Source: a virus (Duplodnaviria > Caudoviricetes). Taken from it: a DNA stretch of 64,000 bases. The position numbers and the translations under genes were made by a program. The stretch covers positions 1-64,000 of IMG/VR virus record IMGVR_UViG_2895532408_000002, one strand, 5' to 3'. Position 1 is the first letter of the stretch. Each line of letters begins with the position of its first letter. This document shows, in pieces, positions 1,240 through 62,900 of the stretch. The notes beneath the pieces are model-generated. The model had not been told where the DNA came from and did no database searches. It saw only the letters and a list, made by a program, of their open reading frames with translations.

Positions 1240-1451
1240 TGTTCTACCGCTTCTAAGTCAATCCAAAGTTCGCGAATATGGGGTGGCTTAATAGCATGTA
1301 CGCCTTTTACCCAGTGTCCGCGTTTAATTCTCTGTCGTACCGTTTCTATGTCTTCACCAGACAGTTCACAATATTTAGTGAGTGGTACGGTTCTTAGGCT
1401 AGTAGTCACATTAATAGCAACAGGGTAGTTATCATTAGCTGAGTTCGTCAT
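1203..1451 (-). CDS. Excisionase-like DNA-binding protein
   Basis: PLTKYCELSG...RIKRGHW...WIDLEAVEQW resembles lambdoid excisionases; directly upstream of int; ATG follows GGAAATTGACGAT. Confidence 0.8.
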   Translation of the reverse strand: MTNSANDNYPVAINVTTSLRTVPLTKYCELSGEDIETVRQRIKRGHWVKGVHAIKPPHIRELWIDLEAVEQWIRNGGNSLAG

Positions 1452-1524
1452 ATCGTCAATTTCCAAATTTTAAAAGTTATACCCTAAAGGGTAGGTTCGG
1501 CTGGCTTTCACCAGCCTATAAAAG

Positions 1525-3549
1525 TTAAACAGCTACGCGGTTCTCGGCATCGAGTTCTTTATGTGATGCCTGTAAAACCTGTCCGATATGAGGTGTGATA
1601 CGTTGGATACATTGCCATGTGAAGCTGGCTCGTGTGTCGTCCATAGCACTATCAATCTCGTCTAGCATCATTAAAGGTAATACACGGTGGGTTAAAATAC
1701 GACCTAAACCGATTCGCAGTGTTAAATTAGCAAGGTCTTTACCCGAGCCTGACAGCGTTCTTAGCGGCTGGCCATCAACAACAACCTCGAAATCCTGTCC
1801 CACTTCAACGGACTGGAATTCGCCGCCGGTCATTTCACTCATAAGCATAGACGCCACTTTATTAAGTGAAGGCAATAGGTGACTTTGAACCTTAGCTTTC
1901 ACCACTTTCAGTGCTTCACGAGCCCGAGACAGTTCCGATAAACGCGCTTCCTCGGCAGCTACACCTTCAATACTTTTATTATAGGTGGCCAAAGCCTGTT
2001 CGTACTGCCCAGAAAGGTGCTCGTAGTTTGCCCATTCTTGACGGGCCGACTCTAGCTGGCTAATCACATTACGTAAGGTCGCTTCGGTATTCTCAGGGAA
2101 TTGCTGTGTAATACTGTTAAGCGTTTCTTGCGCTTGGTCATACTTCGATTTCGCTTCACCGTAAGCTTTCTTCAAACCTTCAAAATGCGTTGCTTGGCTA
2201 TCATACATCCGCATTTGATTATCAAACTGGTCTTTTATCCGCTTACAGGTACCTTCCCAGTTTTTAGTTTGCTGGTCGTTCATCTGAGAGATATTAGACA
2301 CATGGCTCTTATAGTCCTTGTTCTCTTTCTCAAACTGAAGTATTGCAGACTTCGCCGTGCGAACTTCGTGAAGCGCGGTTCTCAAATCATCAATATTTAA
2401 GCTCTGCAGCTCTTCTAATAGGCTGTCATGCTTCTTGTTTATTTCAATCTGGGTCCGTGTTTCATTCCATTCTTTAACGGTTACGCTTGGGGCCTCTTCA
2501 CGGACTGGTAACTTTTCTAGTTCTTCAATCTCCGCCGACAAATGGAAGTGATGCTTACAGCTCGGGCACTCAATAGTGTGTGAAGCTTTAAGCTCTTGAA
2601 TCCGGTTAAAGCGCTCGTGTTCTGCCCAAGCGTCATAAAGCGGCTGTTGCTCTGGCCAATCTGGGTTAGGTTCACAAGGTTTGTATTGTGCCTCGAGACG
2701 CAAGAACTCAGCTTCAACCTTTACCGCTTTATCAAGGTTATTCTGAAGGTTCAGTTCCACCGTTGTTAACTGAGATACCGTGGTCGGCATACCGTTACTT
2801 AGCGTAGGGAACTCAGGGGCCTTCATCGTAGTGGCTAGAGGTTCGGGCTTGTCTGGGTAAATCGGCTCTTGGGGTGGTACCGGTTTTGTTGGTTCGGTTG
2901 GTACCGATACAGCTTTTGCCGTTAGCCAGTTCTCAAGACTCGTTTTGTACGTAGCCAGGGCGTTCTCAATATCCGCTTTAGGTGTTTGAGGTTGCGTAGG
3001 CGCCACAGGCTCGACCAAGTTCTTTTTGTGCGTATCAATAACCGCACGCAGTTCCCTAATCTCTCCGGCCATATTATTAGCAAGCCCATCCATTTGAGTT
3101 AGGCCAGCAACCGAATCAATCATTTGTTTACGTTCAGTGGGGCGCATATCCGCAAGCGCTTGAATATCTCCTTGAGCGCACCAGTGAGCAATACGAAACA
3201 CATCAAAGCCATAACCTAAGGTTCTAACCACCCACTGATTAACAGGCTTGGTACCACTTACAATAGGCTCACCTTTGTGGTGTACCTCAGACTTAGATTT
3301 GGTACGAGTGATAGTGTAAGTCTCGCCATTGATAGCAATGACAACCTCTACCTTCATTCGCTTGTAATCGCCAGCAATGCCGCGAAGTGCTTTATTACCA
3401 AAGAGGGCAAAGCCCACCATTTCAAAGTTAAGTGATTTACCTTTGCCGTTCGCGCCGGTGATCAACGTTGAACCCGAATTTAGTTCCAACTCGTTTTTAA
3501 TTGTTTTACCGTTCGAGAACGTTAAGTCATATTTAATTGAAGAAAGCAT
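1525..3549 (-). CDS. SbcC/Rad50-like SMC ATPase (recombination nuclease subunit)
   Basis: Walker A GANGKGKS, coiled coil with CPSC zinc hook, signature LSGSG, Walker B LMMLDEID. Confidence 0.92.
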   Translation of the reverse strand: MLSSIKYDLTFSNGKTIKNELELNSGSTLITGANGKGKSLNFEMVGFALFGNKALRGIAGDYKRMKVEVVIAINGETYTITRTKSKSEVHHKGEPIVSGTKPVNQWVVRTLGYGFDVFRIAHWCAQGDIQALADMRPTERKQMIDSVAGLTQMDGLANNMAGEIRELRAVIDTHKKNLVEPVAPTQPQTPKADIENALATYKTSLENWLTAKAVSVPTEPTKPVPPQEPIYPDKPEPLATTMKAPEFPTLSNGMPTTVSQLTTVELNLQNNLDKAVKVEAEFLRLEAQYKPCEPNPDWPEQQPLYDAWAEHERFNRIQELKASHTIECPSCKHHFHLSAEIEELEKLPVREEAPSVTVKEWNETRTQIEINKKHDSLLEELQSLNIDDLRTALHEVRTAKSAILQFEKENKDYKSHVSNISQMNDQQTKNWEGTCKRIKDQFDNQMRMYDSQATHFEGLKKAYGEAKSKYDQAQETLNSITQQFPENTEATLRNVISQLESARQEWANYEHLSGQYEQALATYNKSIEGVAAEEARLSELSRAREALKVVKAKVQSHLLPSLNKVASMLMSEMTGGEFQSVEVGQDFEVVVDGQPLRTLSGSGKDLANLTLRIGLGRILTHRVLPLMMLDEIDSAMDDTRASFTWQCIQRITPHIGQVLQASHKELDAENRVAV

Positions 3550-4574
3550 TATTCAGCCTCCGCGCTTAGGTCCATAAACTGGCCCCAAAGTTGATTGGTT
3601 GTTTCCGTTGAAACGTCGTGTTCTGCCATTGTCGATTTGAAGATGCCTTCTAAGTCAAAGCTATCTAGATTTACTTCCAGTTCGTCGTCTTTATTATCTG
3701 AGACGCGTTTGAAAGTTAGGCTCAAACAATCTACATCCGCAATAGGGGCCTCCGTAGGGAGAAGCGTGACGCGAAGGTTCATATTCTTAAACCTTTCGGG
3801 GTCAGCTTCTAAGGCCTCTGTCGCTTCCTGAAGCGTGGCTGTTATATAAAGCTGGTTAGTTGGGTCCTCAGCATGTGAGTAAGGTTGCATAGAACCGGTA
3901 ACCCAGACTGGCGTATCACCTTCCATAAAAATACGCGGGGTGTGATAGTGGCCAGTGATAACCGCAAGCGCGGTTTGCATTTCTTCAAAAGGGATCAAGT
4001 TATCGGTTGCTGAACTATCTTCACTAAATGCGAGAATATCCCAGTGGCCAAACGCAAAGAACCCTACCGGTGGCTTAATCTCTGCAGCAATCTCTTTCGC
4101 CGTTTTAAACGGGTGCCACGGGTAGAAAACAAAATGCTCTTTATCAATGGTAAGCTTGAGTGCGCTTTCAGCAACTACGTGAATATTAGGAACGTGAGCG
4201 ACAAGCTGTGTAAATACATCAAACGAGCTTTTGAACTGGGTGTCTCTCGAGGCATCATGATTGCCGCGAATTATCACGAACTGACGGTCTGGGTAGTTAC
4301 CCGCCGCAAGACGATAAACGTCGGCCGCAAATAAGATATCTTCTTCCGGCACGCGGAACTTATCAAACAAGTCACCCATACAAACGTGAAGCTTATACCC
4401 TGGCGCAGTAACAATACCCGCAAAGGTATCTTTCACCATTTCTTCGCGCTCACCTTTACGGTGTGTAGGTACGCCAGTATTGAATTTACGGGCTAGGTGC
4501 GGGTCACCTAACGTCTGTACAAAAGAGGGGAGTTTAACTAAATCGTTAAGCGATTCGATTGGTTGCATTTGCAT
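3549..4574 (-). CDS. SbcD/Mre11-like metallophosphoesterase nuclease
   Basis: GDPH, GDLFD, GNHD, GHYH motifs; adjacent to SbcC-like gene. Confidence 0.92.
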   Translation of the reverse strand: MQMQPIESLNDLVKLPSFVQTLGDPHLARKFNTGVPTHRKGEREEMVKDTFAGIVTAPGYKLHVCMGDLFDKFRVPEEDILFAADVYRLAAGNYPDRQFVIIRGNHDASRDTQFKSSFDVFTQLVAHVPNIHVVAESALKLTIDKEHFVFYPWHPFKTAKEIAAEIKPPVGFFAFGHWDILAFSEDSSATDNLIPFEEMQTALAVITGHYHTPRIFMEGDTPVWVTGSMQPYSHAEDPTNQLYITATLQEATEALEADPERFKNMNLRVTLLPTEAPIADVDCLSLTFKRVSDNKDDELEVNLDSFDLEGIFKSTMAEHDVSTETTNQLWGQFMDLSAEAE

Positions 4575-4584
4575 CGTCAATTTC

Positions 4585-4962
4585 CTAAATAATAATCGAG
4601 GGTACTTGTCCCTCGGTAAAGTTAACTCTAATTTTCCAATTTAAAGCTGGGCTAAAGTAAGGCCAGTATTCTTTAATAAAGTTGTCTAACTCTAAGTATC
4701 TGGCTCGGTAAGCCCGTTGTCCTAGGGCATGATCCAAAACCTTATAGGCAGCATTAGGGCTCTTAAGGTCGTTGTAATTCTCACCATCTTCACCAATCTT
4801 AGACGGCGAAAAATCGTTGAGTATTCGCGGTATAAAATTGGAATTTGTTATATGTCCTCTTCGCCACAACAAAACCAGTTTAGCCAGCCGAGCGTTTTGC
4901 CAAATTAAGGTGTTGATCTCGGTTTTAGCATGTAAGGCCCAGCCACAAGTAACCTCAATCAT
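4585..4962 (-). CDS. Hypothetical protein
   Basis: 125-aa ORF filling the operon gap. Confidence 0.6.
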   Translation of the reverse strand: MIEVTCGWALHAKTEINTLIWQNARLAKLVLLWRRGHITNSNFIPRILNDFSPSKIGEDGENYNDLKSPNAAYKVLDHALGQRAYRARYLELDNFIKEYWPYFSPALNWKIRVNFTEGQVPSIII

Positions 4963-4966: not shown

Positions 4967-5374
4967 TTACCCCCACGTAAATTGGAGCGACGTTATTTCT
5001 TCATAACGCATAGACTTCTTAGGCCAGCTTAGAATTAGGTCCGCGGGGACCTTAAACCAACCATCAATACTTATGAAATGGAGGTAGAAGTAGTAGAGGC
5101 CCCCCGCTTTAGTTACCTTTGTCGCTTCACGCCACTGACGCTTTTCAATTCGAGAGAAATCAAAACGAGGGCTTTCAGAAATACTCTTTACTTCCGCGAA
5201 GGACGTTAAGCCTTTCTGAGTCACAAGAAAATCAGAGGGTTTGGATGAAACAATACGCTTACGAACGCGGGACTTGTTTACATCAGCATGGTCTTCGAAG
5301 CGATATACATGAGCGCCCAGCGCTTTCATATTCTCTTCGAAGATATCTTCAGAGGGTTTACCAGTGTTTTGCAT
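4967..5374 (-). CDS. PD-(D/E)xK nuclease, probable RecU-like Holliday junction resolvase
   Basis: GKPSE...PSDF...AEVKS pattern; size and context. Confidence 0.7.
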   Translation of the reverse strand: MQNTGKPSEDIFEENMKALGAHVYRFEDHADVNKSRVRKRIVSSKPSDFLVTQKGLTSFAEVKSISESPRFDFSRIEKRQWREATKVTKAGGLYYFYLHFISIDGWFKVPADLILSWPKKSMRYEEITSLQFTWG

Positions 5375-5399
5375 CGTCAATTTCCTAATTGTATAAAAC

Positions 5400-5906
5400 T
5401 TATTTTGTTTTATTTAGAGTTAATACTCTTTTGGGTTTATCGGTATTATCCGTCGTGGACTTCTGGCGCATACCACGCCCCACTTTTTGATTTACGATAA
5501 TCCCTTGCTTCTTGGTCTTACGCTTAGCACGCAAGTACATAGAATGTAGTTCAACCATTCGCTTTCTAGCGTAGTCAGATTCAGACTCAGTGACCCTACC
5601 GTCCGGCTTACCCCACAGATTAAAACGCTGGGCTCCGGTGCGAATACGATTAAGGTATTTAATAGAATTAACGTGAAAGCCTATGGCGTCGTACAGCTCT
5701 CTCGAGCTTACTTTCTTCGGAGAGATAACCGCTCGAAGCTGGTCATAAATATCACGACTTAAGGGTTTGTTTGTGAAAATTCTAAATTTATTTTTTCGAC
5801 AATAAGTAACCACCCACAGCCAGCAATGGATAGGTTTTTCAAATTGAAGTTTTTTAGAATTATGTTTAAGGCTGACGCCTTCAATTCCAAAAGTGGCGTT
5901 ATCCAT
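5400..5906 (-). CDS. ProQ/FinO-domain RNA-binding protein
   Basis: KPL...YLNRIRTGAQRFNLWGKPDGRVTESESDYAR matches the ProQ/FinO core; basic tail. Confidence 0.75.
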   Translation of the reverse strand: MDNATFGIEGVSLKHNSKKLQFEKPIHCWLWVVTYCRKNKFRIFTNKPLSRDIYDQLRAVISPKKVSSRELYDAIGFHVNSIKYLNRIRTGAQRFNLWGKPDGRVTESESDYARKRMVELHSMYLRAKRKTKKQGIIVNQKVGRGMRQKSTTDNTDKPKRVLTLNKTK

Positions 5907-5997
5907 GCTCGACTCGTCAATTTATATTTAAAAGGCCCCTAGCGGAGCCTTATAGTTATTATATTATTTAATAGTTATTATGCTTAAGAATAACCCT

Positions 5998-8900
5998 TTA
6001 TGCAACTTTAGTCGTTACCATAAACAGTTTATTATTTAACAAGCTTATTAAGCGGTTTTGTATTTCTGGGTGCAATTTAGAAATATAAGGATGCAATTCA
6101 GAAACTTGCGGTGAACCAGCTAGAGCTTGGAAAACATAGGCTTTCAAATTCCCAGGTATCTCTTCTAGACCCGTAAACATGGTGCTATCTGAAGATTCCT
6201 TCGCTCTTCTCACATCCTCAGCCCAGCGATTAAAACGCTCATCATCTAAATAGTATTTATAAACAGAGCTTAGACCGACACGTTTTTTCTCTCTTCTAAA
6301 CTTCATACCGAACGAAGTAAGTACACGGCGAACGAACTCATGACGCTTCTTGTCAGTATCACACATAGGTATTTTTATACCTTGTAGGATTTCTAAATCT
6401 CTCGAGTGTGCTAATAGAAAATCAAAAGCGCGATCTTTTTCTAAATTCGTTATCTCTCGACCATCATATGTCGGGACGTCATTTAGAAATTCCACGCCTA
6501 AATGGTAGAAGAACCCGCGGCCTAAGCCTTGGTGGTCCGCAAACGCTGTTTTATCTTTATCATGACGCTTTGTATCAAAGCGGTTAATCATATCGATAAG
6601 GAAAAGGTCGTCATTATTAGCCCCTAAGAGTAAGCCCTTACGTCGGCCATTAAGTGCCTGTGTTGACATAGTAACTACATCGTTAAGCTCATCCCCAGCC
6701 TCTAGGCCAAAGAGTCGCGCTTGGCGTTTCTTAAGTAGCTGACGTTGTTCCTCCGCATTTTTCAAAGTCTGGTTATCTAATATTTCAAATTCTTCGTCCG
6801 ATAACAGCTCAGTCTCACGAAGTTTTTGTTTCTCTACTTCTCTAATTTGGTCTGTTAATTCGTCCATCAACATTTTCAAATTGTAGCCTTCTTCAGAGGC
6901 CAGCGTGTAAAGCGTGTTTATCTGATAGCCTTCATTTTCTAAAGCGTTTACCAAGTTTTTAGAAAAGTGATTAAGCTTATTATTTTCAAAACTCTTTAGT
7001 TGGCCATACCAGTCCGACCAACCATGGTCATTTATTTTCAAACGTTCCGTGGCATGGTCGTACTCTGAAATAAATTGAACACAGAGTTTATTATCAATGG
7101 TGTTTCGGTTACCAAAAACCTCTTTTTGAACGATTTCTAAAGGGGCTGTAGGGTAACGTCTCGCATTATCCAAATACATAATGTGATAGTCCGTACACTC
7201 ACGAACGCGACTCATATGCTGCAAGCAATCCGAAGGAAGGTTACCCGCCATTTTAGTAAAGAACGCAAAAGTCTTTTTAAACTTAGCCCCCATTTCTGTA
7301 GCATCAATTGAGTGGCCGGTACCCATAGAAGGGGAGGACATAAAAATATCATCTTCTTTAAGGTTACCATTTAAGTCTCGAATGAAGGCTTGAACGTCTG
7401 GGGTCTGGGAGTTGTTACTGGTGATAGTAATAACTCGGCGTCCCTTCACTTCGGTTATAAAGTGCTCATGCTCAATCTGACCATCACCCCCCAGTTCTTC
7501 AATAATCGTCGCAGCTTTTTTAAGTACATCAACTTTAGAGTTTGAGGCGTAGAATAAGCCCTCGGTTTTAGCTTCGTTGATCAAAGACTCAACAAACGCA
7601 GAGGTATCACCCTTCCCATCGGTATCTTGATACAACGTTACTTGTCGGCCTTGCTCTCGAGCGGGACGATAATTGTTGATAACGACGTTCATTGCACGTT
7701 CTTGAGGAAGAATACCAAAGTCAGGGTCTCTCATTAGGTCCACGAACTCTTTGTTTAAGTCGGCATCCATACAAACTACATACTTAGCGCCAGCGATAAT
7801 CTCGCGAAGCACTTTCAAACATGCCGCCGGTTTATCAACGGTTGTCGCTTTAATTGCACGTACAAGCTGACAAACCTCATCCATAATAACAATGTCGTAG
7901 TTCTGGCCTTGAAGCTTGTATATCGAATTAAGGCAGATACCTAAGCGTTTCTGCATACGTAACGAGTGTAACCGTTCGCTTTCAATTTCATTGTAGTCTG
8001 CAAGATTGAACTGTTTTGAAAGTGAGTTAACTAACGAGATAAGGTGACTGATAGCAATAACTCGGCCTTCGGTATCCTTTACTTGATTCCTAAGCATAAA
8101 CGTTTTACCGGTACCTTTATCGCTTTTCACCAGTGTTATGCCAGGGCGTAGTCTTAGCTCTGGGAGATAGCGCTGGTTAATAACCGTAGCTTTAGAATCA
8201 AATTCCTCAAGCCTAGACTCGGTAGTCTCGGTCTTACTCATAAAGGTCTCAATAGACTCACGCAGCTCAAAGTTTCTCTCACCTTCCACAAACGAGTGTA
8301 TCGTCGGGTTGTAGTCACCGTAGCGGCCAGCGTTGGCGTAGAACTTAGCTTTCGAATAGCCTTTCTCAGGGCGTAGTGGGTCTTGTAATTGGGCACCATC
8401 ATAAAGCGTAGGGTTTAAGAACGCTTCAAGCACGCTAGTTATACGACCATCTTCAAACTCTAGAACATCGGCAGGGTGAAGTATCTTGTTCTCATGCGCC
8501 TTGACTATCTTCATAGCGTCGTCACGAGAAAGCGGCATTTGCGTGTAGTGTGTGGTGTTAACCATTCTCTGAACTTTAACTTCTCTAAATTCAGATACAC
8601 GTTCCATTACGTCTTTAGATTGTTTTTCTAACTCAACAACACGACGAAATTCTTTATCTTGAGTAGGTGTAAAGTCCTTCAGAAGCTTAGTTTTTAATAA
8701 CCGCTTACCCTTACGGTTAATCTCACCTTTCGGTAAATTCTGGTAGAAGTTCTCTTTGGCTCGAATAAATGCGCCAGCTTCAAAACATAGACGTTCTGGC
8801 TGGAAAACTGAGGTATCGAAAACTGTTCGGGGTAGTCGGCCCCCACTCGCGCTCACTTTAATGTGGCCTAGGCCAGCCATCCAGCAACGCTTCTCAAGCA

Positions 8901-9501
8901 TCTTGCCAAATCGAGCAATATCTTCCCCTTTCTCAACCAGCATATAAATATGGAAGCCATCCGCGGGGCGTATTACCTTATCGGTTTCTTTGTCGAATAA
9001 TGACGTAGAGGTACTGTAGGTTCTAATGTAGTCCGTGTTATTTAATTCTAGTTCTGGAACTGCATTATTAAGATGCGTTAGGAATTCCTCAGGACCTTTG
9101 ATTTTTAGTTTTGCGTGTTCGTCTTTGTCGTAATCGAAAAGAACTAAGCTAGGACCTTTTGTGATCATAGATTTTGAAGAACGTGTGCCATATACACCAG
9201 TCTCATCTACGTGAACGGGGTATTGGTATCCTCGACGCTCAAACTCGTTGCTGGTTAGAACCTCAACAAACTCATGTTCCGTATCCATAATGCCAGGAGT
9301 AAAGCACTGGTTATGGTTGAGACTCTTTATAAAGTCCGGCAGTTCAGTTAATGTTAGTTCTACGCGTTTTGCGGTACCTGTCACCATCTTTGGTGCATCA
9401 CTTATAATTTTACCATGCTCCATTCGCAGCTCTTTAGTGAGCACTCCGGTGGAGTTGGTAAAGAGTGTCAGGTAAAACTTTTGTTCTACTTGGTTAGCCA
9501 T
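5998..9501 (-). CDS. Large replication protein: primase-like N-terminus plus origin-binding SF2-type helicase domain
   Basis: KSDKGTGKT Walker A, IMDE, CMDAD, SPSMGTGHSID, QHMSRVR; N-terminal FDYD...GFHIY. Confidence 0.7.
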   Translation of the reverse strand: MANQVEQKFYLTLFTNSTGVLTKELRMEHGKIISDAPKMVTGTAKRVELTLTELPDFIKSLNHNQCFTPGIMDTEHEFVEVLTSNEFERRGYQYPVHVDETGVYGTRSSKSMITKGPSLVLFDYDKDEHAKLKIKGPEEFLTHLNNAVPELELNNTDYIRTYSTSTSLFDKETDKVIRPADGFHIYMLVEKGEDIARFGKMLEKRCWMAGLGHIKVSASGGRLPRTVFDTSVFQPERLCFEAGAFIRAKENFYQNLPKGEINRKGKRLLKTKLLKDFTPTQDKEFRRVVELEKQSKDVMERVSEFREVKVQRMVNTTHYTQMPLSRDDAMKIVKAHENKILHPADVLEFEDGRITSVLEAFLNPTLYDGAQLQDPLRPEKGYSKAKFYANAGRYGDYNPTIHSFVEGERNFELRESIETFMSKTETTESRLEEFDSKATVINQRYLPELRLRPGITLVKSDKGTGKTFMLRNQVKDTEGRVIAISHLISLVNSLSKQFNLADYNEIESERLHSLRMQKRLGICLNSIYKLQGQNYDIVIMDEVCQLVRAIKATTVDKPAACLKVLREIIAGAKYVVCMDADLNKEFVDLMRDPDFGILPQERAMNVVINNYRPAREQGRQVTLYQDTDGKGDTSAFVESLINEAKTEGLFYASNSKVDVLKKAATIIEELGGDGQIEHEHFITEVKGRRVITITSNNSQTPDVQAFIRDLNGNLKEDDIFMSSPSMGTGHSIDATEMGAKFKKTFAFFTKMAGNLPSDCLQHMSRVRECTDYHIMYLDNARRYPTAPLEIVQKEVFGNRNTIDNKLCVQFISEYDHATERLKINDHGWSDWYGQLKSFENNKLNHFSKNLVNALENEGYQINTLYTLASEEGYNLKMLMDELTDQIREVEKQKLRETELLSDEEFEILDNQTLKNAEEQRQLLKKRQARLFGLEAGDELNDVVTMSTQALNGRRKGLLLGANNDDLFLIDMINRFDTKRHDKDKTAFADHQGLGRGFFYHLGVEFLNDVPTYDGREITNLEKDRAFDFLLAHSRDLEILQGIKIPMCDTDKKRHEFVRRVLTSFGMKFRREKKRVGLSSVYKYYLDDERFNRWAEDVRRAKESSDSTMFTGLEEIPGNLKAYVFQALAGSPQVSELHPYISKLHPEIQNRLISLLNNKLFMVTTKVA

Positions 9502-9551
9502 CGTCAATTTAATCCAAATTGTAGCGGCCCTCTAAGTGAGGGCCGACTTCA

Positions 9552-10160: not shown

Positions 10161-10249
10161 CGTCAATTTCCTTTAATTTTTAAGTATGAGACCAGCATTA
10201 TAAAAAGTAATCAAGCGAGTTGCTGGTAAACTAACTGGATTTTTATTAA

Positions 10250-14633: not shown

Positions 14634-14644
14634 CGTCAATCTCC

Positions 14645-15535: not shown

Positions 15536-15544
15536 CGTCAATTT

Positions 15545-35169: not shown

Positions 35170-35180
35170 CGTCAATTTCC

Positions 35181-43722: not shown

Positions 43723-43735
43723 CATCAATTTCCTT

Positions 43736-48802: not shown

Positions 48803-48846
48803 CGTCAATCTCCGCATTGTTATAGGTTAAATATCATACCGCAAGA

Positions 48847-48875: not shown

Positions 48876-48914
48876 AGGCGAAAAATAGACTAATTGACGA
48901 TAATTGGGGTAGCT

Positions 48915-50696: not shown

Positions 50697-50714
50697 CAAT
50701 TTGGGAAATTGACG

Positions 50715-52223: not shown

Positions 52224-52250
52224 AATCGAAAATTTGGATGGAAATTGACG

Positions 52251-53821: not shown

Positions 53822-53863
53822 TTCGGAAGATTAGAACCAGAAATAAAAATTTGGAGATTGACG

Positions 53864-55069
53864 ATGCAAACAGCAAATCTTAGTCAGATTAAACGCGCCC
53901 CACTTGATGTGGTTCTGGCGGGTATCAATAGTGAACACAGCGACGATTCGATTCGTGCCGGTGTTAAGCTGGTACAAGCAGCAAAACAATACGGTATTAA
54001 CGTTCGTGACTACCTAAACTTAGCGGTTGACGTTCGTGCGTCAAACGATCCTGAAAAGGGTAAAAACTTCCGTTTAGAGAATGGTAACTTTATGACCGGC
54101 TATCAGGCCGCGATTGTTGAATTAAACCTACCGTTCAAAAACTCGTTTGAGCAAGGTATTACCCTTCAAGCGGCAGCGGACACCTTTAGTGCACGCCCAG
54201 GGTCTCGGGCACTTTTCCCAGAAGTTATCGATGATATGCTTCAGTGGAATACGCGCCAAGATATGTTCGAGTCAACGGCCCCGATGGTCGCTCAGACTCG
54301 TACTATCACGGGTAACGAACTTATTACTACAGCCATTTTTGACGACCAAGGCCAGTTGAATACTTCGCCTATCGCTGAACTTGCGAACATTCCGATGCAG
54401 ACTATCAAAAGCTCTGATAAGTCGGTTAAGTTCTTCAAGCATGGCTCAGGTATCCGTACCTCATACGAATTCGAACGTCGTGTTAGCCTAGACATTCTTA
54501 CGCCATATGCTGCTCGTATTGCGCGTAATAAAGAAATCAGCAAAGTGAAGATGGCAACCTCGCTATTGATCAATGGTGATGGTGTTCACGAAGCGGCAGA
54601 AGTGGTAGCAGCTTCTAACTATAAAGATTGGGATGCGGCTAAAGGCCTTAAAGGTAACTATGTTGCCTTAGCGGACTTCTTGGCGCAACGTGCTCGTAAA
54701 GGCGTACCGGTTGATACTATCGTAGGTAACTACGATATGTGGCTAGAACTGTTCCTAATGTTCTTACCTACTCAACCTAACGGTAAGTCTACCTCTGAAA
54801 TTCTTCAGGAGAACGGTGGTCCTCGCGTGGCTCTGGCCATGGACTTCTTAAGCGGTGTTAACTTCCATATTTCAAGCTCAGCCCCTTCAGGTAAGCTGAT
54901 TTGTTATTCGAAGGCTGACACGCTGGAAGAACTTATCGAAGCGGGTTCTGTACTGTCTGAGTCTGAGACAGCAATCAAGAACCAGTCGATTACTTACGTG
55001 AAAACTGAAAACTCAGGCTATCGCCTAGTTTACGGTGATACTCGCGTAATCTTCGATACTGCGGCCTAA
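53864..55069 (+). CDS. Major capsid protein
   Basis: 401 aa; LFPEVI, IAELANIP, KHGSGIRTSYE HK97-like segments; followed by a hairpin. Confidence 0.8.
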   Translation: MQTANLSQIKRAPLDVVLAGINSEHSDDSIRAGVKLVQAAKQYGINVRDYLNLAVDVRASNDPEKGKNFRLENGNFMTGYQAAIVELNLPFKNSFEQGITLQAAADTFSARPGSRALFPEVIDDMLQWNTRQDMFESTAPMVAQTRTITGNELITTAIFDDQGQLNTSPIAELANIPMQTIKSSDKSVKFFKHGSGIRTSYEFERRVSLDILTPYAARIARNKEISKVKMATSLLINGDGVHEAAEVVAASNYKDWDAAKGLKGNYVALADFLAQRARKGVPVDTIVGNYDMWLELFLMFLPTQPNGKSTSEILQENGGPRVALAMDFLSGVNFHISSSAPSGKLICYSKADTLEELIEAGSVLSESETAIKNQSITYVKTENSGYRLVYGDTRVIFDTAA

Positions 55070-55507: not shown

Positions 55508-56194
55508 ATGTTAAGTGTCCCAAATAACGAAATGTTAATGCTGACAGAGTTTCAAATAGGTGACTACACCTATTTGCCGGACTTTGGGACCGTAAGTGTC
55601 TCCCTCAAGGACCATGAGGGCGTTGAGGTGCATTCAATGGATGTACCTTTTGATGCTGATTACAGCATCCCTCAAGATATCCTGAAAGTCAGCAGCAGTG
55701 ATATCTTGAGCTTTTTTAAGTTGACGGTTAAGTTCACCAGTGAAAATCGCCAACGTATTTATACGGATATTGTTCGGGTTCATACGGATTTTATGTTTAC
55801 ATCCACACCCTCTAATCTAAGAAGCCTTATAGGGCTATACGAAGAAGAACTCCCTGATAGTGAGATTGATTTTATTTACTCGTTCAATGAGCTGGTAAAT
55901 GAACTTGGCCAAGGCCTACTTGATGATACAAACGCTCGTATCAACAAGTTAATTTTGCTACATGAAGCTGTGCGCCACCTTCCTGCGTTAGGACTGAAAA
56001 CTCTAAAGTCTAATGAAATTGACGACACTAAGAAGTCTCGACTATCCAATGTTGATATAAAATCCGTGCAGGACTCTATTACATCCCAGTATTGGGCTCA
56101 CAAATTAACGTTTGAGTCTGTGGATCAATTCCCGCAAGACCCAATCCTTGAATTTGTGGCCCGAACTGACCCGTTCACAGGTGAAGACGCATGA
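55508..56194 (+). CDS. Putative head-tail connector
   Basis: Position in morphogenesis operon. Confidence 0.5.
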   Translation: MLSVPNNEMLMLTEFQIGDYTYLPDFGTVSVSLKDHEGVEVHSMDVPFDADYSIPQDILKVSSSDILSFFKLTVKFTSENRQRIYTDIVRVHTDFMFTSTPSNLRSLIGLYEEELPDSEIDFIYSFNELVNELGQGLLDDTNARINKLILLHEAVRHLPALGLKTLKSNEIDDTKKSRLSNVDIKSVQDSITSQYWAHKLTFESVDQFPQDPILEFVARTDPFTGEDA

Positions 56195-58352: not shown

Positions 58353-58407
58353 GTTTCATCCTCCTTCAGCAAGGTATCAATAATAACCTAAAATTTGGAG
58401 ATTGACG

Positions 58408-59238
58408 ATGGCTGGTGAAGCTAAAACAACTGATTTTATGTTGGGTACTGCCACTGTAATGATTGGTAACCCAGAAGACCTCTATAAACTTAACCCAGAA
58501 GAGCATTCTGTGGGCCTAGTTAAGAATTTCACAATCGAAGCAACAAAGGAACGTTCAGACCTTACCCAAGGCCGAACTAACGATGTTGTCTTTACCCTAA
58601 CAACAGGTGCCACAACTCGAGGCACATTCGAAATGTACGAATACACTGAAAAGAACCTTGCGTATGCTTTAGGTCTAGACGGTGGTGAACTTACTTCACC
58701 GGAAGGTGATGCTCATGTTGTAAAAACGGCGGCATCCTTTTCTTCGGGTAGTGTTAGCTTGGCATTAAATGACGGTACTGGTCAAAATATTGCCGTAGGT
58801 AGCTGGGTGAGTGTTCGTGACCCAATTTCTGAAAATATTGTTCTAGCTATGGTGACAAATGTGTCTGGAATAACTTCAGGAACCGCTACAGATGCAACAA
58901 TCGAAGTTGAAGTCCCCGATTCAAATATGACTTGGGCTGTTCCGGCTGGCGCTTACGTATCTTTAGTAACGGTACTTGATGTTGGTTCAACGGATGTAGA
59001 CCGTGACTTTGCCGCGAAGGTTCAGGGCCAGTTAGCTAATGGTAAGTGGATCACACTTCTTATTCCTAAGATGCGCGTGTCTTCGGGTCTTACTATGGCG
59101 TTTGGTACTGATAACTTTGGCAACACGCCTTTCGAGTTTACACCTCTTAAAGTTACACCTTCAGATACTTACTATGCACCGTTCAAAGGTACCTCTGGTA
59201 AGTTGGTCCATGACTCAGTTACAAGTGCACTAGCGTAA
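58408..59238 (+). CDS. Major tail tube protein
   Basis: FMLGTATVMIG...VGLVKN...TPFEFTPL; followed by terminator and chaperone genes. Confidence 0.75.
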   Translation: MAGEAKTTDFMLGTATVMIGNPEDLYKLNPEEHSVGLVKNFTIEATKERSDLTQGRTNDVVFTLTTGATTRGTFEMYEYTEKNLAYALGLDGGELTSPEGDAHVVKTAASFSSGSVSLALNDGTGQNIAVGSWVSVRDPISENIVLAMVTNVSGITSGTATDATIEVEVPDSNMTWAVPAGAYVSLVTVLDVGSTDVDRDFAAKVQGQLANGKWITLLIPKMRVSSGLTMAFGTDNFGNTPFEFTPLKVTPSDTYYAPFKGTSGKLVHDSVTSALA

Positions 59239-59288: not shown

Positions 59289-59301
59289 AAGGAAATTGAC
59301 G

Positions 59302-59649
59302 ATGAGTGATAATCCCGCCACAAGATTTAATCTACGCGTTAATGATGAAGATAAAGAAGTCTTTATGAGCTTTGCGCTATTAAACACTATCACGGGGTAT
59401 TTCCGAAGCGCTGAAGAGCTAGACCAAATCCTATTAAACCCCGAAATTCGCAACAGCATCATTACGGAATTACTTTCTGAAAGAAATGAGAATGGTCGTA
59501 TCACTAAGAACTTTGATACGACAAAAATGGTCGTTGACCACGATGAAGTTCTCGACTTGTTAGAATGGGTAGCGGAGCACGTTGAGAATTTTTTTATGAA
59601 GGCTCTCCAACGGGCCAAGCAAAGGATGAAAAAGAAGCAGACCATTTAG
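59302..59649 (+). CDS. Tail assembly chaperone (G-like)
   Basis: Between tail tube and tape measure; T7 slippery run near the end. Confidence 0.7.
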   Translation: MSDNPATRFNLRVNDEDKEVFMSFALLNTITGYFRSAEELDQILLNPEIRNSIITELLSERNENGRITKNFDTTKMVVDHDEVLDLLEWVAEHVENFFMKALQRAKQRMKKKQTI

Positions 59650-59960: not shown

Positions 59961-59979
59961 CAATTAGGGGAAATTGACG

Positions 59980-62900
59980 ATGGCCGGCAGCACTGGATCA
60001 GGCAACACCATTAGAAGTACGTTACTTAACTTTACGGTAGACCCGAAATCAAAAAAGGTAATTGAAGAACTTACTCGGGAATTCGAAAAGCTAGAGCGTG
60101 TCACACAAGCGGCAAGCCAACAACTTCAGGCAAACATAAAGGCTATAAAAGACACGCCCCAAGGTCGCTCTGAATTAGCCCAGAATGCTAAAAATGAAGT
60201 AAATACCCAGCGCAAAATCTTAAATGAAAACCAAAAGAATGCGCGTGCGCTTCTAGACCAAATAGCCTTAACCGTTGGGAAGGGTCTTAATCCTCAGCAA
60301 CAGCAAGAACTATTGAAGGGGCTCAATCAAGCCTTTGGGGAAATTACAGGTCGCTTCACTAAACAGGCCCAAGCGCAAGCCAAGAAACAAGCAAAGGACC
60401 TTGCGGACTATTACGATCTTCAATTTCGCAAAAACCCTACGGTCCCAAAAGGTAACCCACTCTACAAGTCTCGAGTAAACACGCTCAGTGAAAGTGAATT
60501 GCGTTCTGGTATCCAAAGGCAAAAGCTTTTACGTAGCGGGGCTCAAAGTGCGCTTAACGACGCTATTCGACTTGGGGATACCAGTCTTGAGAAGAAAGCA
60601 CAGGGAGCATTAAAGAAACTTGAATCGGGTCTGGTTGCGGCAGAGTCCCGCCTGAAGAAGTTTACCGACGCCGCTAAAAAAGCTGAAGTAGCCCAAGATA
60701 CACAAGCAAGAACCGTAAGACGAACTCTTAAATCTTACAATGATGATGAGTTTCGATTAAACCCTACGGTAGCCAAAGGCCAGAAAGTAAAAGCTTCACA
60801 AATCGCTACGTTGAACCGAACGCAACTCGAGGATGCGATTGCACGAAATAAGGTTTACGAGAATGCTGCCCGTAAAGCGCTTAAATCTAGTCTCGCGCCA
60901 GAAACGAGAAATAAGACTTTAGAGAACAACGCGGGTAAAGCCCTTAAAGAATTAGAAGCCTCAACCAAGCTTGCTCAGGCTCGACTTAAAGAATTTGCTG
61001 AAGCTGCCGCCGAAGCCAAACGCGCTGAAAAAGCAGCAATGAAAGCTCAGCGTCCAACCACTCAAGTTACCGAACAACAACGCGTAGCGCGACGTATTGA
61101 GCAAATACAGCAAGCAAGAACTAACCAGCGCTTAGATGGCGGAGCCCAGCTATTTAGAAACCAAGGACAATTGCTGCGTAACTATGCGGTAATGGGTGCC
61201 GGTGTGGGTGGCCTTGCAACGTCCGCTACGTTCTCAACCGAGTTAGATAGACAGTTCAAACAACTACAATCCATTGTGAACCTCACCAATGAGGAAATGG
61301 AAGAACTCTCTAAAAATCTAATCGATGTATCAGAGAAAACCAAGTTTACAGCCACAGACGTCGCGGATGCGGCCATTACGCTCGGTCAGGCTGGCCTAGG
61401 TCAAAATGATATCCAAAACGCGATAGAGGGCGTTACGCTCTTCGCTACAGCGGTTGGGTCGGACTTAAAAAGTGCCGTGGACCTAGCGACCTCAACATTA
61501 GGGGTATTTAATAAAGACAGTTCGCAGATGATCAACATCGTAGACAAAATGACTACGGCTGTGAACAGCTCTAAATTGAACCTCGATAAGCTTGCGCTAG
61601 GCCTACAGTATTCAGGTAACCTTGCGGCCCAGTCGAATGTGACGTTTGAAGAAACCGTTTCTGCTCTTGGCGCCATGGCTAACTCAGGTATTCGAGCGGG
61701 TTCTACACTTGGTACCGGTCTTAGACAGATTATTATTTCTCTGCAGAAACCTTCCGAGTCCTTTACCGAGATTGTACATAACCTCGGGCTTTCAATGTCG
61801 GACCTAGATATTACGACTCACGGTTTGATACCGGTAATGAAGACACTGGCCGAGAGTGGCTTTACCGTTCGTGACGCTATGGAGAGTATGGAAGTACGTG
61901 CGGCATCGGCATACGGAGCTTTTGCTAACAATATTAGCGTAGCGGAAGACTTAAGCGAACAAATGCGTATTGGTGGCTCTGCGGCCCGTGCGAACGACAC
62001 GCAAATGGAAGCTTTAGCTAACCAGCTAGACCGCTTAGGCTCAATCAGTAAATCGATTGTCTATGAGTCGATGGAACCGTTACTCGATACTATTACTAAG
62101 CTAACAGAGAAAACCGCTGACTTCCTTTCCGTGGTACGAGACCTCGGCCCTATTCTCAGTGCCTTAGCGGTACCCGCGTCGATACTCGGCGGCGTGCTGG
62201 CCACACGAAGCGTTCTTCGTTTAGGGGCCGGACTATTGGGCGGCGTAGATATGCTGACCGGCGGGAAAGGTAAAGGCAGTACAATTGCTAGGCTTGCTAA
62301 GGTTGCCTCGAGTAGGGGCTTAGGAACTGCGGCCGGTTTTGCAGCTCGGGCAATACCTGGGGTTGGTCTTGCTACTGCGGTAGGTACCGCAGGAGTTTAT
62401 GGTTATCAATACCTCGATGGCCGAGCCCGTGCAAATGACCGCGTGGATAGCACGCAAGCCGCTTTAAACCGTGGCTCTTCAGAAACGAAGGTTTACGAGG
62501 ACCAGCTTAAAAAAGTCGGGTCAGCTATAGATACGCTTATTCTAAAGCAAAATGACCTTACCGATAACAAATCCTTACAGCGCGAGATACGTCGACTTAA
62601 TGATGAGTTCCGTCAACAAGGCTTATATATCGATGATTCGATAAACAGCTACGACAAACTTATTACTAAGATGAAAGAGTTTGAGGACGCTACGAGAGAC
62701 GGAGTAGGGTACCTTCAAACACAGAACCGAAATAACTTCGTAGATAACTCCCAAGCTAAATTAGATGAGTTGTTTTCAATCGGTTTCTTTGATTCATCTG
62801 AACGTAAGCTTCTAGCGAATGAAGGCAATCCTAATGTAAGCGTGGGTAGCGGTAAGACCGCAACCTCTCGTGGCCGGTTCGCGAGTCGAGGAAATGTTTA

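Follow-up and report, generated by a model that had tools for sequence, protein, structure and literature searches.

What reads a motif of 13 to 14 nucleotides that stands at the start codon of nearly half of the genes of a phage? The question is raised by a marine siphophage, whose closest named relative is Pseudoalteromonas phage KB12-38, and of whose 75,951-bp genome (G000, contig G000:C1) bases 1-64000 form the stretch analysed here, called the window. We consider this phage temperate because it carries a tyrosine integrase gene:

1-1239 (-), tyrosine integrase gene (Pfam Arm-DNA-bind_2 and Phage_integrase); start context inspected, no box

A preliminary description, made without database searches, had inferred that one trans-acting factor, sRNA or protein, binds the motif and thereby controls translation throughout the phage. 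We propose that the motif is the target of a phage-wide antisense sRNA regulon repressing translation, which is likely the best reading; all the evidence is computational, so that expression, direction of control and role remain inferred.

With at most two mismatches, GGAAATTGACGAT is matched 44 times in the window for 1.9 expected (100 dinucleotide-preserving shuffles gave a mean of 1.94, sd 1.14, largest 5, and none reached 44), and ATTGACGA is the most frequent 8-mer genome-wide, with 46 copies. A census took the sites that differ from the 13-mer by at most two mismatches or that contain the 8-nt core unchanged, a start being counted when an ORF of at least 40 codons had its start codon 0-18 nt away; genes were called by our own simple heuristic ORF caller, which is not a curated annotation. 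The window contains 49 such sites, 41 of them followed at 0-18 nt by a start codon in the same orientation. The main sites are listed below; they come from both the motif scan and the census unless otherwise indicated.

1452-1464 (-), start box, 0 mismatches, ATG 2 nt on; gene 1203-1451 (82 aa)
4573-4585 (-), start box, ATG overlapping; metallophosphoesterase gene 3549-4574
5373-5385 (-), start box, ATG overlapping; gene 4967-5374
5913-5925 (-), displaced degenerate box, core kept, no GGA, ATG 8 nt on; leads the ProQ/FinO gene (census)
9500-9512 (-), start box (TTAAATTGACGAT), ATG overlapping; primase/helicase gene 5998-9501
10159-10171 (-), start box, ATG overlapping; gene 9552-10160
14632-14644 (-), start box, GGAG variant; gene 14193-14633
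15534-15546 (-), start box; RdgC gene 14645-15535
18969-18981 (-), start box, ATG 2 nt on; 5'-3' exonuclease gene 18165-18968
20103-20115 (-), start box; gene 19031-20104
22397-22409 (-), core copy, no GGA, 18 nt ahead of ATG; gene 22039-22380 (census)
23102-23114 (-), start box; gene 22411-23103
25493-25505 (-), start box, ATG 2 nt on; DNA ligase gene 24317-25492
25732-25744 (+), box copy within codons 3-7 of HTH gene 25724-26044 (motif scan)
27953-27965 (-), start box, GGAG variant; gene 27382-27954
28363-28375 (-), start box; gene 28014-28364
29008-29020 (-), start box; gene 28563-29009
30060-30072 (-), start box; ORF 29759-30061 (100 aa)
32314-32326 (-), start box, ATG 3 nt on; gene 30927-32312
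34833-34845 (-), start box, ATG 3 nt on; gene 34028-34831
35168-35180 (-), start box; gene 34891-35169
36322-36334 (-), start box; C5 DNA methylase gene 35424-36323
37831-37843 (-), start box; gene 36906-37832
38080-38092 (-), core copy, no GGA, upstream of the gene's own AAGGAG, GTG 16 nt on; gene 37877-38065 (census)
39226-39238 (-), start box; gene 38331-39227
39925-39937 (-), start box; gene 39441-39926
40073-40085 (-), start box, GGAG variant; ORF 39919-40074 (51 aa)
41256-41268 (-), start box ending GAC, ATG 3 nt on; gene 40766-41254
41824-41836 (-), start box (TGAGATTGACGAT), ATG 3 nt on; gene 41328-41822
42241-42253 (-), start box, ATG 2 nt on; gene 41854-42240
43136-43148 (-), start box; gene 42829-43137
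43721-43733 (-), start box, C>T variant (GATGAT); ORF 43462-43722
43917-43929 (-), start box, C>T variant; gene 43736-43918
44953-44965 (-), shortened box (GGATTGACGAT), ATG 3 nt on; gene 44232-44951 (census)
48801-48813 (-), start box, GGAG variant; gene 48314-48802
48889-48901 (+), core copy, no GGA, 15 nt ahead of GTG; large terminase gene 48915-50696 (census)
50704-50716 (+), start box; portal gene 50715-52175
52240-52252 (+), start box; gene 52251-53417
53853-53865 (+), start box, GGAG variant; major head protein gene 53864-55069
58397-58409 (+), start box, GGAG variant; gene 58408-59238
59291-59303 (+), start box; gene 59302-59649
59969-59981 (+), start box; tape-measure-size gene 59980-65292, which extends past the window end
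65888-65900 and 67959-67971 (+), two more start boxes past the window end (motif scan)

The ATG overlaps the final AT of the motif in 28 sites; the start lies 2 nt on at four (genes starting at 1451, 18968, 25492 and 42240), 3 nt on at five (32312, 34831, 41254, 41822 and 44951) and 8-18 nt on at four (5906, 22380 and, with GTG, 38065 and 48915). Eight sites are devoid of start codon: an orphan copy without mismatch (45413-45425, -), the one within the HTH gene, two core copies inside genes (17122-17134 and 56014-56026) and four chance-like matches with two mismatches (28420, 46000, 53431 and 60416). Each of the 41 start-linked copies reads in the direction of its gene; they occur on both arms and lead replication, accessory, head and tail genes. 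Box-led genes represent 41 of the 82 genes called in the window and 43 of the 90 genome-wide; their upstream gaps are longer than those of the other genes (median 59 nt versus 3 nt; at least 10 nt for 41 of 43 versus 17 of 47), so that box-led genes do tend to come first after a gap. The boxes and where they lie are thus shown, and the corresponding claims of the preliminary description all held: a shared motif at some 40-45 gene starts, in every module and on both strands in the sense of the gene, mostly at the first gene after an intergenic gap, with a copy inside the first codons of the HTH gene and with displaced starts, to which we add those at 42240, 34831, 41254 and 41822.

The motif might act on DNA, as the site of a phage DNA-binding protein, as a -35-like TTGACG element or as a modification site linked to Dnd or a methylase. 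TTGACG is present within the core, the variant ATCGACGAT is almost palindromic, and the phage encodes DndB, PAPS-reductase-like and C5 methylase genes. Against this, the start-linked copies never depart from the sense of their gene and hold a constant register with its start codon, a -35 box overlapping ATG would start transcription within the gene, and the wobble-type tolerance described below (T or C only where the RNA has G) is a signature of RNA pairing and not of a DNA site. We find this explanation very unlikely.

A candidate reader of the box was found downstream of the tape-measure gene, with one tail gene in between and another after it:

65716-65832 (+), predicted sRNA gene, outside the window, 1.7 kb past its end (promoter, fold, terminator, anti-box)

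Its sigma-70-type promoter (-35 TTGACA at 65716, 17-nt spacer, -10 TAGTAT) fits 10 of 12 consensus positions. The predicted RNA of about 83 nt (about 65747-65829), whose 5' end is set from the promoter alone in the absence of expression data, has a 5' hairpin, an unpaired centre and a terminator made of an 11-pair hairpin and a U tract. The centre bears at 65779-65791 the exact complement of the motif, hereafter the anti-box; this is the only perfect box copy that opposes the local gene direction, and no ORF follows it on the - strand of this locus. The complementarity covers GGAAATTGACGAT(A) and part of the flanks, and typical boxes pair with the RNA across 13-18 contiguous bases. Genome-wide, 69 sites can form an uninterrupted run of 11 or more Watson-Crick or G-U pairs with the 30-nt centre, versus 13.1 +/- 6.3 (maximum 34) for 200 shuffled centres counted likewise. 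In the fold prediction, the mean unpaired probability of a 12-nt centre is 0.95, versus 0.38 elsewhere in the RNA. These signals, the predicted fold and the complementarity to the box are shown; that the RNA is made is inferred.

Departures from the consensus box also follow the RNA. Copies lacking GGA upstream of their own ribosome site extend their match in 3' (GATAA..), as the RNA sequence predicts: at the terminase gene the 3' flank GATAATT also pairs, giving 14 contiguous matches and -38.8 kcal/mol. For the copy within the HTH gene, the complementarity likewise runs 3' of the core (duplex of -34.8 kcal/mol). At box-led starts of the window, all nine single internal substitutions (positions 3-12, 0-3 nt from the start) would retain a wobble pair with the RNA, seven being A>G facing U and two C>T facing G. 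Certainly the A>G variant is not clean evidence of wobble, because it also improves the Shine-Dalgarno element.

A homologous sRNA unit occupies the same position in seven further lineages compared in full and in the close relative G002, i.e. in G001, G002, G005, G006, G007, G008, G009 and KB12-38; this conservation is shown. The promoter hexamers and the distance between them are conserved, but not the sequence of the spacer. A covariance model trained on close relatives detects G005 (E 1.2e-8), G006 (9.7e-7) and G007 (4.7e-4); it missed the G008 RNA and scored that of KB12-38 at only E 0.35, so that these two homologues rest on position, signals and anti-box. In the model-fitted alignment of nine RNAs, 99.5 % of the cells pair versus 88.2 % in shuffles, and 10 of 22 pairs change on both sides versus 3.9 +/- 1.4 (0 of 500 shuffles reach the observed count; slid controls give 0-1), these pair counts being derived from an alignment fitted to the structure. 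The centre is predicted unpaired in G006, G007 and G008 (0.92-0.94); in KB12-38 and G009 it is predicted mostly paired with the RNA's own 5' end (0.23 and 0.08).

The conserved unit bears on a second alternative, in which the box would form the last part of the leader of a repeated intergenic cassette (hairpin, AATTAACTT and box), spread by recombination or gene conversion, without any trans-acting reader, the mirror copy being an inverted relic. Many boxes at 27.9-45 kb do come after a G-run/C-run hairpin and AATTAACTT, relatives have similar hairpin families and, read on the - strand, the sRNA terminator hairpin stands just upstream of the box copy, as in a cassette. On the other hand, conserved replication, head and tail genes are box-led without hairpin or AATTAACTT, and the 13-nt unit alone is, we infer, too short for homologous exchange. 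Besides, in each of the eight lineages compared the mirror copy retains, on the + strand, a sigma-70-type promoter whose spacing does not change and a terminator with a U tail, and its helices co-vary. We find the cassette explanation unlikely.

The antisense reading is also supported by the changes shared by box and RNA, which are shown: in eight lineages, wherever the start motif differs, the RNA centre differs correspondingly. KB12-38 has the box GGATTGAC(N)ATG and the RNA centre complement TTTGGATTGACAATATG; G009 has AGGATTAACAAACATG at about 44 starts and the centre complement TTAGGATTAACAAACATTG; in G006 the box is one A shorter and the RNA one U shorter. At one position, where the RNA has A (G000, G005, G006 and G008), 106 boxes have T and 4 have C; where it has G, which pairs with U or C (G001 and G007), 21 have T and 26 have C. 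The co-variation at the second codon is weak. When the mean predicted duplex energy is computed for 8 RNA centres against 8 box sets, the cognate assignment comes out lowest, its value being reached by only 1 permutation in 40,320. Only five of the eight box sets nevertheless have their cognate RNA as the best of the column: those of G000, G006 and G008 score better, by as much as about 2 kcal/mol, with the RNA of a neighbour, so that the co-variation is carried mainly by G001, G007, KB12-38 and G009, the cognate not being the best partner inside the GGAAATTGACGAT group. As the lineages are related and the box sites inherited, the permutation and Fisher figures are descriptive and not independent-sample probabilities. 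Portal, head, tail and other orthologues bear the box of their own lineage, whereas at the same genes the RNA-less relatives G003 and G004 use ordinary ribosome sites that vary. What all RNAs of the lineages of GGAAATTGACGAT type retain is the complement of AAT(T/C)GACGAT; the earlier proposal that the conserved element is the spacer, and not the Shine-Dalgarno part, also held.

Two further rivals meet this pattern. A phage protein might bind the box on the RNA and repress or activate translation in the manner of T4 RegA; the mirror copy at 65.78 kb would then be incidental. The box is located where such repressors bind, it remains intact as a unit at genes whose ATG lies 2-3 nt further on, and many proteins of this phage have no known family. 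A protein reading the sense RNA would not bind the complement, however, and this complement is kept in a promoter-terminator unit in all eight lineages compared, tracking every box change. A search for the RegA family found no match in the phage genome; it found none in the control genomes either. This rival appears unlikely.

The box could also be a translation enhancer private to the phage and recognised by the ribosome itself, whether by pairing with rRNA outside the anti-Shine-Dalgarno, by S1 or because the phage modifies the ribosome; phage messages would gain priority, and the sRNA would be a secondary add-on or irrelevant. The correctly spaced GGA or GGAG, the A/U-rich spacer and the position before operon-leading genes, which need independent initiation, speak for it. 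Against it, the box differs among related phages (GGAAATTGACGATG, GGATTGAC..ATG, GGATTAACAAACATG), the sRNA-less relatives do with ordinary sites at the same genes, and an enhancer gives no reason for a mirrored RNA gene nor for a T/C pattern following the A or G of the RNA. The absence of an S21 gene, not found in the phage by a search whose control was positive in six genomes, counts against it too. We hold it to be improbable.

Returning to the antisense sRNA, two other loci could take part in its action:

5400-5906 (-), ProQ/FinO-domain protein gene, 168 aa, candidate sRNA chaperone (Pfam, PDB)
45295-45545 (-), conserved non-coding unit: promoter-like TTGACC..TATACT, box copy, terminator

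The first product matches Pfam PF04352 (E 5.4e-12, 46.1 bits for a cut-off of 27) and ProQ in PDB 5nb9 (E 2e-5). Its gene is present in the six near-complete motif genomes searched (CheckV 89-100 %), is annotated in KB12-38, and is absent from the two complete motif-free relatives searched. This co-occurrence is shown; ProQ as a partner of the RNA is inferred. The second locus, which contains the perfect orphan copy and whose terminator is a stem at 45295-45312 followed by a T run, is conserved in G002 and G001 with compensatory terminator changes; in a relative's copy the box has C where that phage's sRNA has G. It is possibly a decoy or sponge RNA.

In the mechanism that we propose, the box would be a private start box, composed of a weak Shine-Dalgarno (GGAA or GGAG), a fixed spacer (ATTGACG) and the start codon, and a single trans-acting antisense sRNA made by the phage would pair with all its copies. 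The duplex would cover the Shine-Dalgarno, spacer and AUG of about 43 cistrons, most of which open a small operon. As this would block 30S binding, the RNA should repress translation; repression rather than activation is thus an inference. The ProQ/FinO protein would probably stabilise the RNA through its terminator and aid duplex formation, and the box copy without start might titrate the RNA. With about half of the genes box-led, an sRNA gene that is their exact mirror and an RNA chaperone of the ProQ/FinO type, a single RNA could probably switch off the translation of most phage genes simultaneously. What for is more doubtful. In the lysogen, the RNA might silence translation of the phage's lytic programme, and of related phages that enter the cell; the box/RNA pair would then define an immunity group. 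This role, our best guess, is inferred and more likely wrong than right. A purely lysogenic role fits poorly, since the ProQ gene sits in the lytic leftward operon, and a global repressor that also hits head, tail, ProQ and HTH genes has no obvious logic yet.

The trans-acting factor of the preliminary description is thus supported, on computational grounds only, and an sRNA is named as the candidate: its gene is conserved, RNA and box change together in eight lineages and a ProQ/FinO protein is encoded. No account of this box/sRNA system was met in the literature searched. The analogy formerly drawn with the start-associated sequences of cluster K mycobacteriophages held only in part, as the likeness is one of position and the elements are unrelated. 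The closest known systems to the proposed regulon are RocC/RocR and FinO/FinP.

The genome of which the window forms bases 1-64000 (G000) is a single 75,951-bp virus record, rated by IMG/VR as a provirus and 94 % complete; we infer from sequence alone that it is a temperate phage of the siphovirus type. The leftward block is long and comprises genes for replication, recombination and accessory functions (products: SbcC-like, primase/helicase, DNA polymerase, RdgC, 5'-3' exonuclease, helicase, ligase, DndB and C5 methylase), and its rightward structural block, from 48.9 kb, holds the large terminase, the portal, the major head protein and a 1,770-aa gene of tape-measure size. By protein search the closest named phage is Pseudoalteromonas phage KB12-38 (major head protein 58 % identical), Achromobacter phage JWF, Xylophilus phage Lumi and Caulobacter phage Seuss being more remote; searching the phage collection by megablast with 12 kb of the window gave no match, and no tRNA was found in the window. 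Two genes outside these descriptions are:

1-1239, left end: tyrosine integrase gene
25724-26044, + strand: HTH gene, the only rightward regulator-like gene, with a weak HTH_3/HTH_31 match below the Pfam cut-off

On the - strand, the PAPS-reductase-domain, DndB and C5 cytosine methylase genes (29029-29889, 32649-33800, 35424-36323) make up a DNA-modification set, which also shows in the annotation of KB12-38.

The start box GGAAATTGACGAT is present in 44 copies in the window when up to two mismatches are allowed; shuffled sequences contained 1.94 +/- 1.14 copies, 5 at the most, and none of 100 reached 44. ATTGACGA is moreover the most frequent 8-mer of the genome. In a census of 49 sites, 41 are in the sense of a gene that starts 0-18 nt past the motif: in 28 of them motif and ATG overlap, while the start is shifted by 2-3 nt in 9 and by 8-18 nt in 4. 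The other 8 have no start. The preliminary description had claimed such a motif at the starts of some 40-45 genes, with displaced copies and one copy within the HTH gene; all of this held. According to our own simple gene caller, from which the gene totals come, the box leads 41 of the 82 genes of the window and 43 of the 90 of the genome. The median upstream gap is 59 nt for box-led genes against 3 nt for the others, and it reaches 10 nt or more for 41/43 of the former against 17/47 of the latter; box-free genes have ordinary GGAG, AGGAG or GAGG sites and are mostly coupled to the preceding gene. At the start of 17011-17529 (- strand) stands GGAAATTGACTGATG, a decayed box that differs by one substitution and one added base; it was left out of the count.

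That the box could be a promoter of the T7-like phage type was also considered; this reading was set aside as the copies are too numerous and their register to the ATG is fixed. A pairing with 16S rRNA outside the anti-Shine-Dalgarno sequence was likewise set aside, without a host rRNA for comparison. Searched in 596 Gb of genome contigs, the 14-mer box gave scattered single matches, as chance predicts for 14 bases, and these carry no information on a host. One 20.5-kb contig of an Anaerolineales MAG (L141) has two exact copies on the same strand, 255 nt apart (2302-2315 and 2557-2570), and is possibly a fragment of a related phage.

One perfect copy of the box opposes the direction of the local genes. 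It lies 1.7 kb past the window end, in the 214-nt gap that separates the next tail gene from the one directly behind the tape-measure gene, and no ORF follows it on the - strand. On the + strand around it we found a promoter-like TTGACA-17-TAGTAT (10/12 consensus positions), then an 11-pair hairpin and a T run:

65779-65791, - strand: mirror copy of the box
about 65,747-65,829, + strand: predicted sRNA

Folding predicts that the centre of this RNA is open, between a 5' hairpin and a terminator; the unpaired probability is 0.95 for the centre and 0.38 for the rest. The centre is complementary to GGAAATTGACGAT, to the ATTT 5' of the box and to the AATTAGG 3' of it; at the 41 start sites of the window 13-18 contiguous bases match, the G of the ATG facing a U as a wobble pair. 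Genome-wide, 69 sites form at least 11 contiguous pairs with the centre, versus 13.1 +/- 6.3 for shuffled centres. Rfam gave no match at gathering score in the window, nor on the sRNA locus when E values as high as 1 were admitted. Promoter- and terminator-like signals, folds predicted in 9 lineages (G002 among them) and co-varying helices predict, in the absence of transcript data, a small RNA that is non-coding and ends in an intrinsic terminator hairpin and a single-stranded 3' tail, the element that FinO domains bind.

The variants of the box can be read against this RNA. GGAG recurs in seven start-linked copies, TGAGATTGACGAT at 41836 included, and GATGAT in two; each would retain, in predicted pairing, a wobble pair with the sRNA. 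Other copies lack GGA and stand upstream of their own ribosome site: they are those of the terminase gene, 38092, 22409, 67959, the orphan at 45425 and the HTH gene. Most of these GGA-less copies lengthen the sRNA match on the 3' side (GATAA/GATAATT), 67959 adding only one base; this extension tracks the sRNA sequence and follows no ribosome-site rule. For the HTH gene, where the box lies within the first codons, the predicted pairing is longer than usual (-34.8 kcal/mol), and for this reason the candidate repressor might itself be a special target of the sRNA, a possibility that rests on predicted pairing only.

Relatives were drawn as a graded series from head-protein searches of IMG/VR, and ten were read through: nine IMG/VR records (G001-G009; seven at CheckV 89-100 %, two fragments of about 45 %) and KB12-38. 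The sRNA unit was found at the same position in G002, G001, G005, G007, G006, G008, KB12-38 and G009, whose head proteins are 97 %, 86 %, 70 %, 69 %, 67 %, 66 %, 58 % and 56 % identical, in that order, to that of our phage. Every conserved unit has a sigma-70-type promoter (16-17-nt spacing), a 5' hairpin, an anti-box complementary to the box and a terminator with a U-rich tail, and the hairpins vary in sequence among lineages while their pairing is retained. G003 and G004 have neither an enriched start word nor such an sRNA.

A blastn-short search with the G000 sRNA matched in G001 and G002 only. A covariance model built on the closest five finds the units of G005 (E 1.2e-8), G006 (9.7e-7) and G007 (4.7e-4), reaches only E 0.35 for KB12-38 and misses G008. 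When nine RNAs are fitted to the model, 99.5 % of the cells pair, and 10 of 22 pairs show changes on both sides; shuffles give 3.9 +/- 1.4 (0/500 reach the observed count) and slid controls 0-1. These pair counts use the covariance-model alignment, which leans towards structure; on a plain MAFFT alignment of the 9 sRNAs, where the hairpins are misaligned, RNAalifold found no structure.

Two further observations were made on relatives (L118, L120 and L285). Tandem repeats of 30 nt (ACTAAGGACGGTGCT... units) occur in the 86 % relatives, at about 11540-11650 in L118/L120, inside a gene that directly follows the head-protein gene, and in several relatives the commonest words include (CA)n/(TG)n runs.

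The central argument is that the start box differs between lineages and that the sRNA centre changes with it. In G001 both ATTGACG and ATCGACG boxes occur (19 with T, 16 with C) and the facing position of the sRNA is a G, as it is in G007 (2 T, 10 C); in G000, G005, G006 and G008 the sRNA has an A, and of their boxes 106 have T and 4 have C. An A can pair with U only, a G with U or C; this asymmetry between A-type and G-type sRNAs is the one that RNA pairing predicts. In G006, one A is missing from many boxes and one U from the sRNA. More distant lineages have other boxes: that of KB12-38 is GGATTGAC(N1-7)ATG, at about 32-36 starts, and the complement of its sRNA centre is TTTGGATTGACAATATG; that of G009 is (AACCATT)AGGATTAACAAACATG, at about 44 starts, and the complement of its sRNA centre is TTAACCATTAGGATTAACAAACATTG. 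Genes that are orthologous across the lineages (portal, scaffold position, head, tail and tape measure) are preceded in each lineage by its own box, and the motif-free G003 and G004 have there ordinary, varied ribosome sites.

When 8 sRNA centres were combined with 8 box sets, the mean predicted duplex energy was lowest for the cognate assignment, i.e. for the identity among 40,320 permutations. The cognate sRNA comes first in 5/8 box sets; in the other three (G000, G006 and G008) it is narrowly beaten by that of a neighbour sharing the box type. Co-variation of the second codon with the 5' flank of the sRNA centre is weak. As the lineages are related, the permutation and co-variation figures describe a pattern and should not be taken as true probabilities. 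Without a constraint from pairing it would be difficult to account for the joint change of dozens of sites and one distant RNA gene; we judge such a constraint likely, the pairing being inferred without data from cells.

A candidate partner of the sRNA is encoded by the same genome:

5400-5906: gene of a ProQ/FinO-domain protein (Pfam PF04352, E 5.4e-12, 46.1 bits, cut-off 27; E 2e-5 against ProQ of PDB entry 5nb9)

The domain was found in 6/6 of the near-complete motif genomes searched (CheckV 89-100 %: G000, G001, G002, G005, G008 and G009), is annotated at the same place in KB12-38 and is absent from G003 and G004, which were searched likewise; G006 and G007, 45 % fragments without the ProQ region, were kept out of the count. 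Members of the FinO family bind those terminator hairpins that carry a 3' tail and help antisense RNAs to pair at ribosome sites, and phage-encoded ProQ/FinO proteins are known, their function being undescribed (PMC9977716). The partnership of the sRNA with this protein is inferred from co-occurrence only, neither binding nor genetic data being at hand.

Altogether, these data, all of them computational, suggest that, most likely, the box is what an antisense sRNA encoded by the phage recognises, acting with the phage ProQ/FinO protein. The preliminary inference, a binding site shared by one trans-acting factor, sRNA or protein, is thereby supported and can be sharpened, with good likelihood, to this antisense target. 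Pairing would cover the Shine-Dalgarno element, the spacer and the AUG and so block initiation, repression being the direction seen for FinP, RocR and ProQ-dependent sRNAs (PMC9977716); silencing of operon-leading cistrons would silence the coupled downstream genes too. The sRNA appears to have a constitutive promoter, and its location in the tail region is, as far as can be inferred, like that of "moron" genes expressed in lysogens; both suggest an action in the lysogen and on superinfecting kin. A purely lysogenic action is disfavoured by the presence of the ProQ gene in the lytic operon and by the head and tail genes being predicted targets as well.

For the antisense reading, two sRNAs are particular, since their centre is predicted to pair with the RNA's own box-like 5' end (unpaired probability 0.23 in KB12-38 and 0.08 in G009):

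G009, 12300-12385, - strand: self-paired sRNA
KB12-38 (MF098558.1), 13808-13891, - strand: self-paired sRNA

This might be a built-in lock opened by the chaperone, or simply the result of a wrongly assumed 5' end; both remain possible.

One box copy without a start codon belongs to a unit of its own. The non-coding unit around the orphan box (45413-45425) comprises a terminator and a promoter-like TTGACC..TATACT. The unit is kept in G002 and G001, where the terminator shows compensatory changes, and in G001 its box has a C, which fits the G-type sRNA of that phage. We infer that it could possibly serve as a decoy, or sponge, RNA for the sRNA. Start-less copies that may be comparable were noticed in KB12-38 (41505) and in G009 (40081, and 70769 directly before a hairpin).

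A bolder reading can be put forward, which we hold to be less likely than not: a single programmable sRNA, with ProQ/FinO, would gate the whole lytic programme at translation, silencing every box-carrying operon-leading cistron, both of the resident lysogen and of related phages that enter it; immunity specificity would reside in the pair of box and RNA, and the start-less copy at 45.4 kb a decoy lifting the block at induction. The specificity would then diversify by co-variation, A-type RNAs reading U boxes only and G-type RNAs U and C boxes, and KB12-38 and G009 would represent shortened or rewritten boxes. If this were true, it would be a second, post-transcriptional layer of immunity, of a kind undescribed for any phage.

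Other elements were noticed near the boxes. Between 27900 and 45000 (- strand) a G-run/C-run hairpin (GGGGGGAA..TTCCCCCC type), followed by AATTAACTT, stands before many boxes, in a leader of about 50 nt:

for example upstream of 27965, 30072, 32326, 34845, 37843, 43929 and 44965, - strand: hairpin and AATTAACTT leader

The elements of the leader are separable, since the gene 32382-32597 has the hairpin and AATTAACTT without the box. Relatives have hairpin families of their own: GGGGGCATGTGCCCCC in G005, GGGGTAACGTTACCCC in KB12-38 (18-20 copies) and GGTCCCGGAAACGGGACC in G003 (14 copies). At 45600-45720 (- strand), in the non-coding DNA between the primase-like gene and the start-less unit, lie the CACA-N7-TGTG-like dyads cacacaattagggtgtgtg and acacagtttaattgtgtg; a similar dyad, ACAAT-N3-ATTGT, overlaps the -35 and the spacer of the sRNA promoter in G000, not in G001. 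Both kinds of dyads could perhaps be operators for the HTH protein.

If the antisense reading is true, one RNA of about 80 nt controls the translation of about half of the phage genes through a start-site tag that the phage has written itself; this would far exceed in size every self-directed sRNA regulon known from mobile elements, and would be a first job for phage-encoded ProQ/FinO proteins. By analogy, it offers a possible answer to the purpose of start-associated motifs, a question open for cluster K mycobacteriophages since 2011. The co-variation of box and RNA would provide a natural set of orthogonal sRNA-target pairs and suggests an RNA-based specificity of immunity. KB12-38 being cultured, with its Pseudoalteromonas host, the sRNA reading is testable in practice. 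In the literature searched in full text, judged mainly on titles and abstracts, a phage sRNA mirrored to a genome-wide start box is undescribed.

A motif described earlier that resembles it in placement is the start-associated sequence (SAS) of cluster K mycobacteriophages, temperate siphophages: 13 nt at many start codons (PMC12699233; also PMC3203893), with a function still unverified in a 2025 paper (PMC12699233). Here too a conserved 13-nt motif stands directly upstream of many starts (41/49 sites), and the resemblance is one of placement only. The SAS consensus GGGATAGGAGCCC (PMC12699233) is unrelated to GGAAATTGACGAT, the two not matching within two mismatches; the SAS belongs to phages of actinobacterial hosts, lies mostly outside the structural module and is accompanied by the ESAS, paired imperfect 17-nt inverted repeats (PMC12699233), and the relevant passages of that paper do not mention a complementary sRNA.

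A protein could also act at many starts: RegA of T4 represses many phage messages at their initiation regions, with a loose sequence specificity and for early genes only. The RegA family (PF01818) had no match in the genome, and none either in 14 control genomes; no S21 gene (PF01165) was found in the phage, this control being matched in 6/14 genomes. Among phage RNAs, c4 of P1/P7, the CI RNA of P4 and sar of P22 hold down lytic or anti-repressor functions by pairing, and differences in RNA-target pairing define the heteroimmunity of P1 versus P7. These RNAs have one or few targets in one operon, and that of P4 acts on termination, not on initiation; for none of this type is a target box shared by half of the phage genes known, nor a partner among phage ProQ/FinO proteins.

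FinP/FinO, which act on traJ in F-like plasmids, and FopA/Inc show an antisense RNA covering the element's own ribosome-binding site and silencing costly functions (PMC9977716). As in FinO/FinP, a mobile element here has a FinO-family protein and a predicted antisense RNA against its own ribosome-binding sites; FinP however acts in cis, opposite a single target, whereas the phage sRNA would act in trans, far from dozens of target genes. In Legionella pneumophila, the FinO-domain protein RocC binds the terminator hairpin and 3' tail of RocR, which pairs with several mRNAs and represses their translation (PMC9977716). The phage likewise encodes a protein with a FinO/ProQ domain and, by prediction, a single sRNA ending in a terminator, whose many presumed targets have a start-site box in common. 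Whereas RocR acts on four mRNAs of a host competence regulon, the phage sRNA would act on about 43, the element's own genes; the phage system differs also by its uniform Shine-Dalgarno-spacer-AUG box, its being phage-borne, its unrelated sequence (Rfam is silent) and the absence of bench data. Without belonging to a curated RNA family, the system is closest in mode of action to RocC/RocR and FinO/FinP, of which it would be a very large-scale version: the kind of control is known, and its scale is new.
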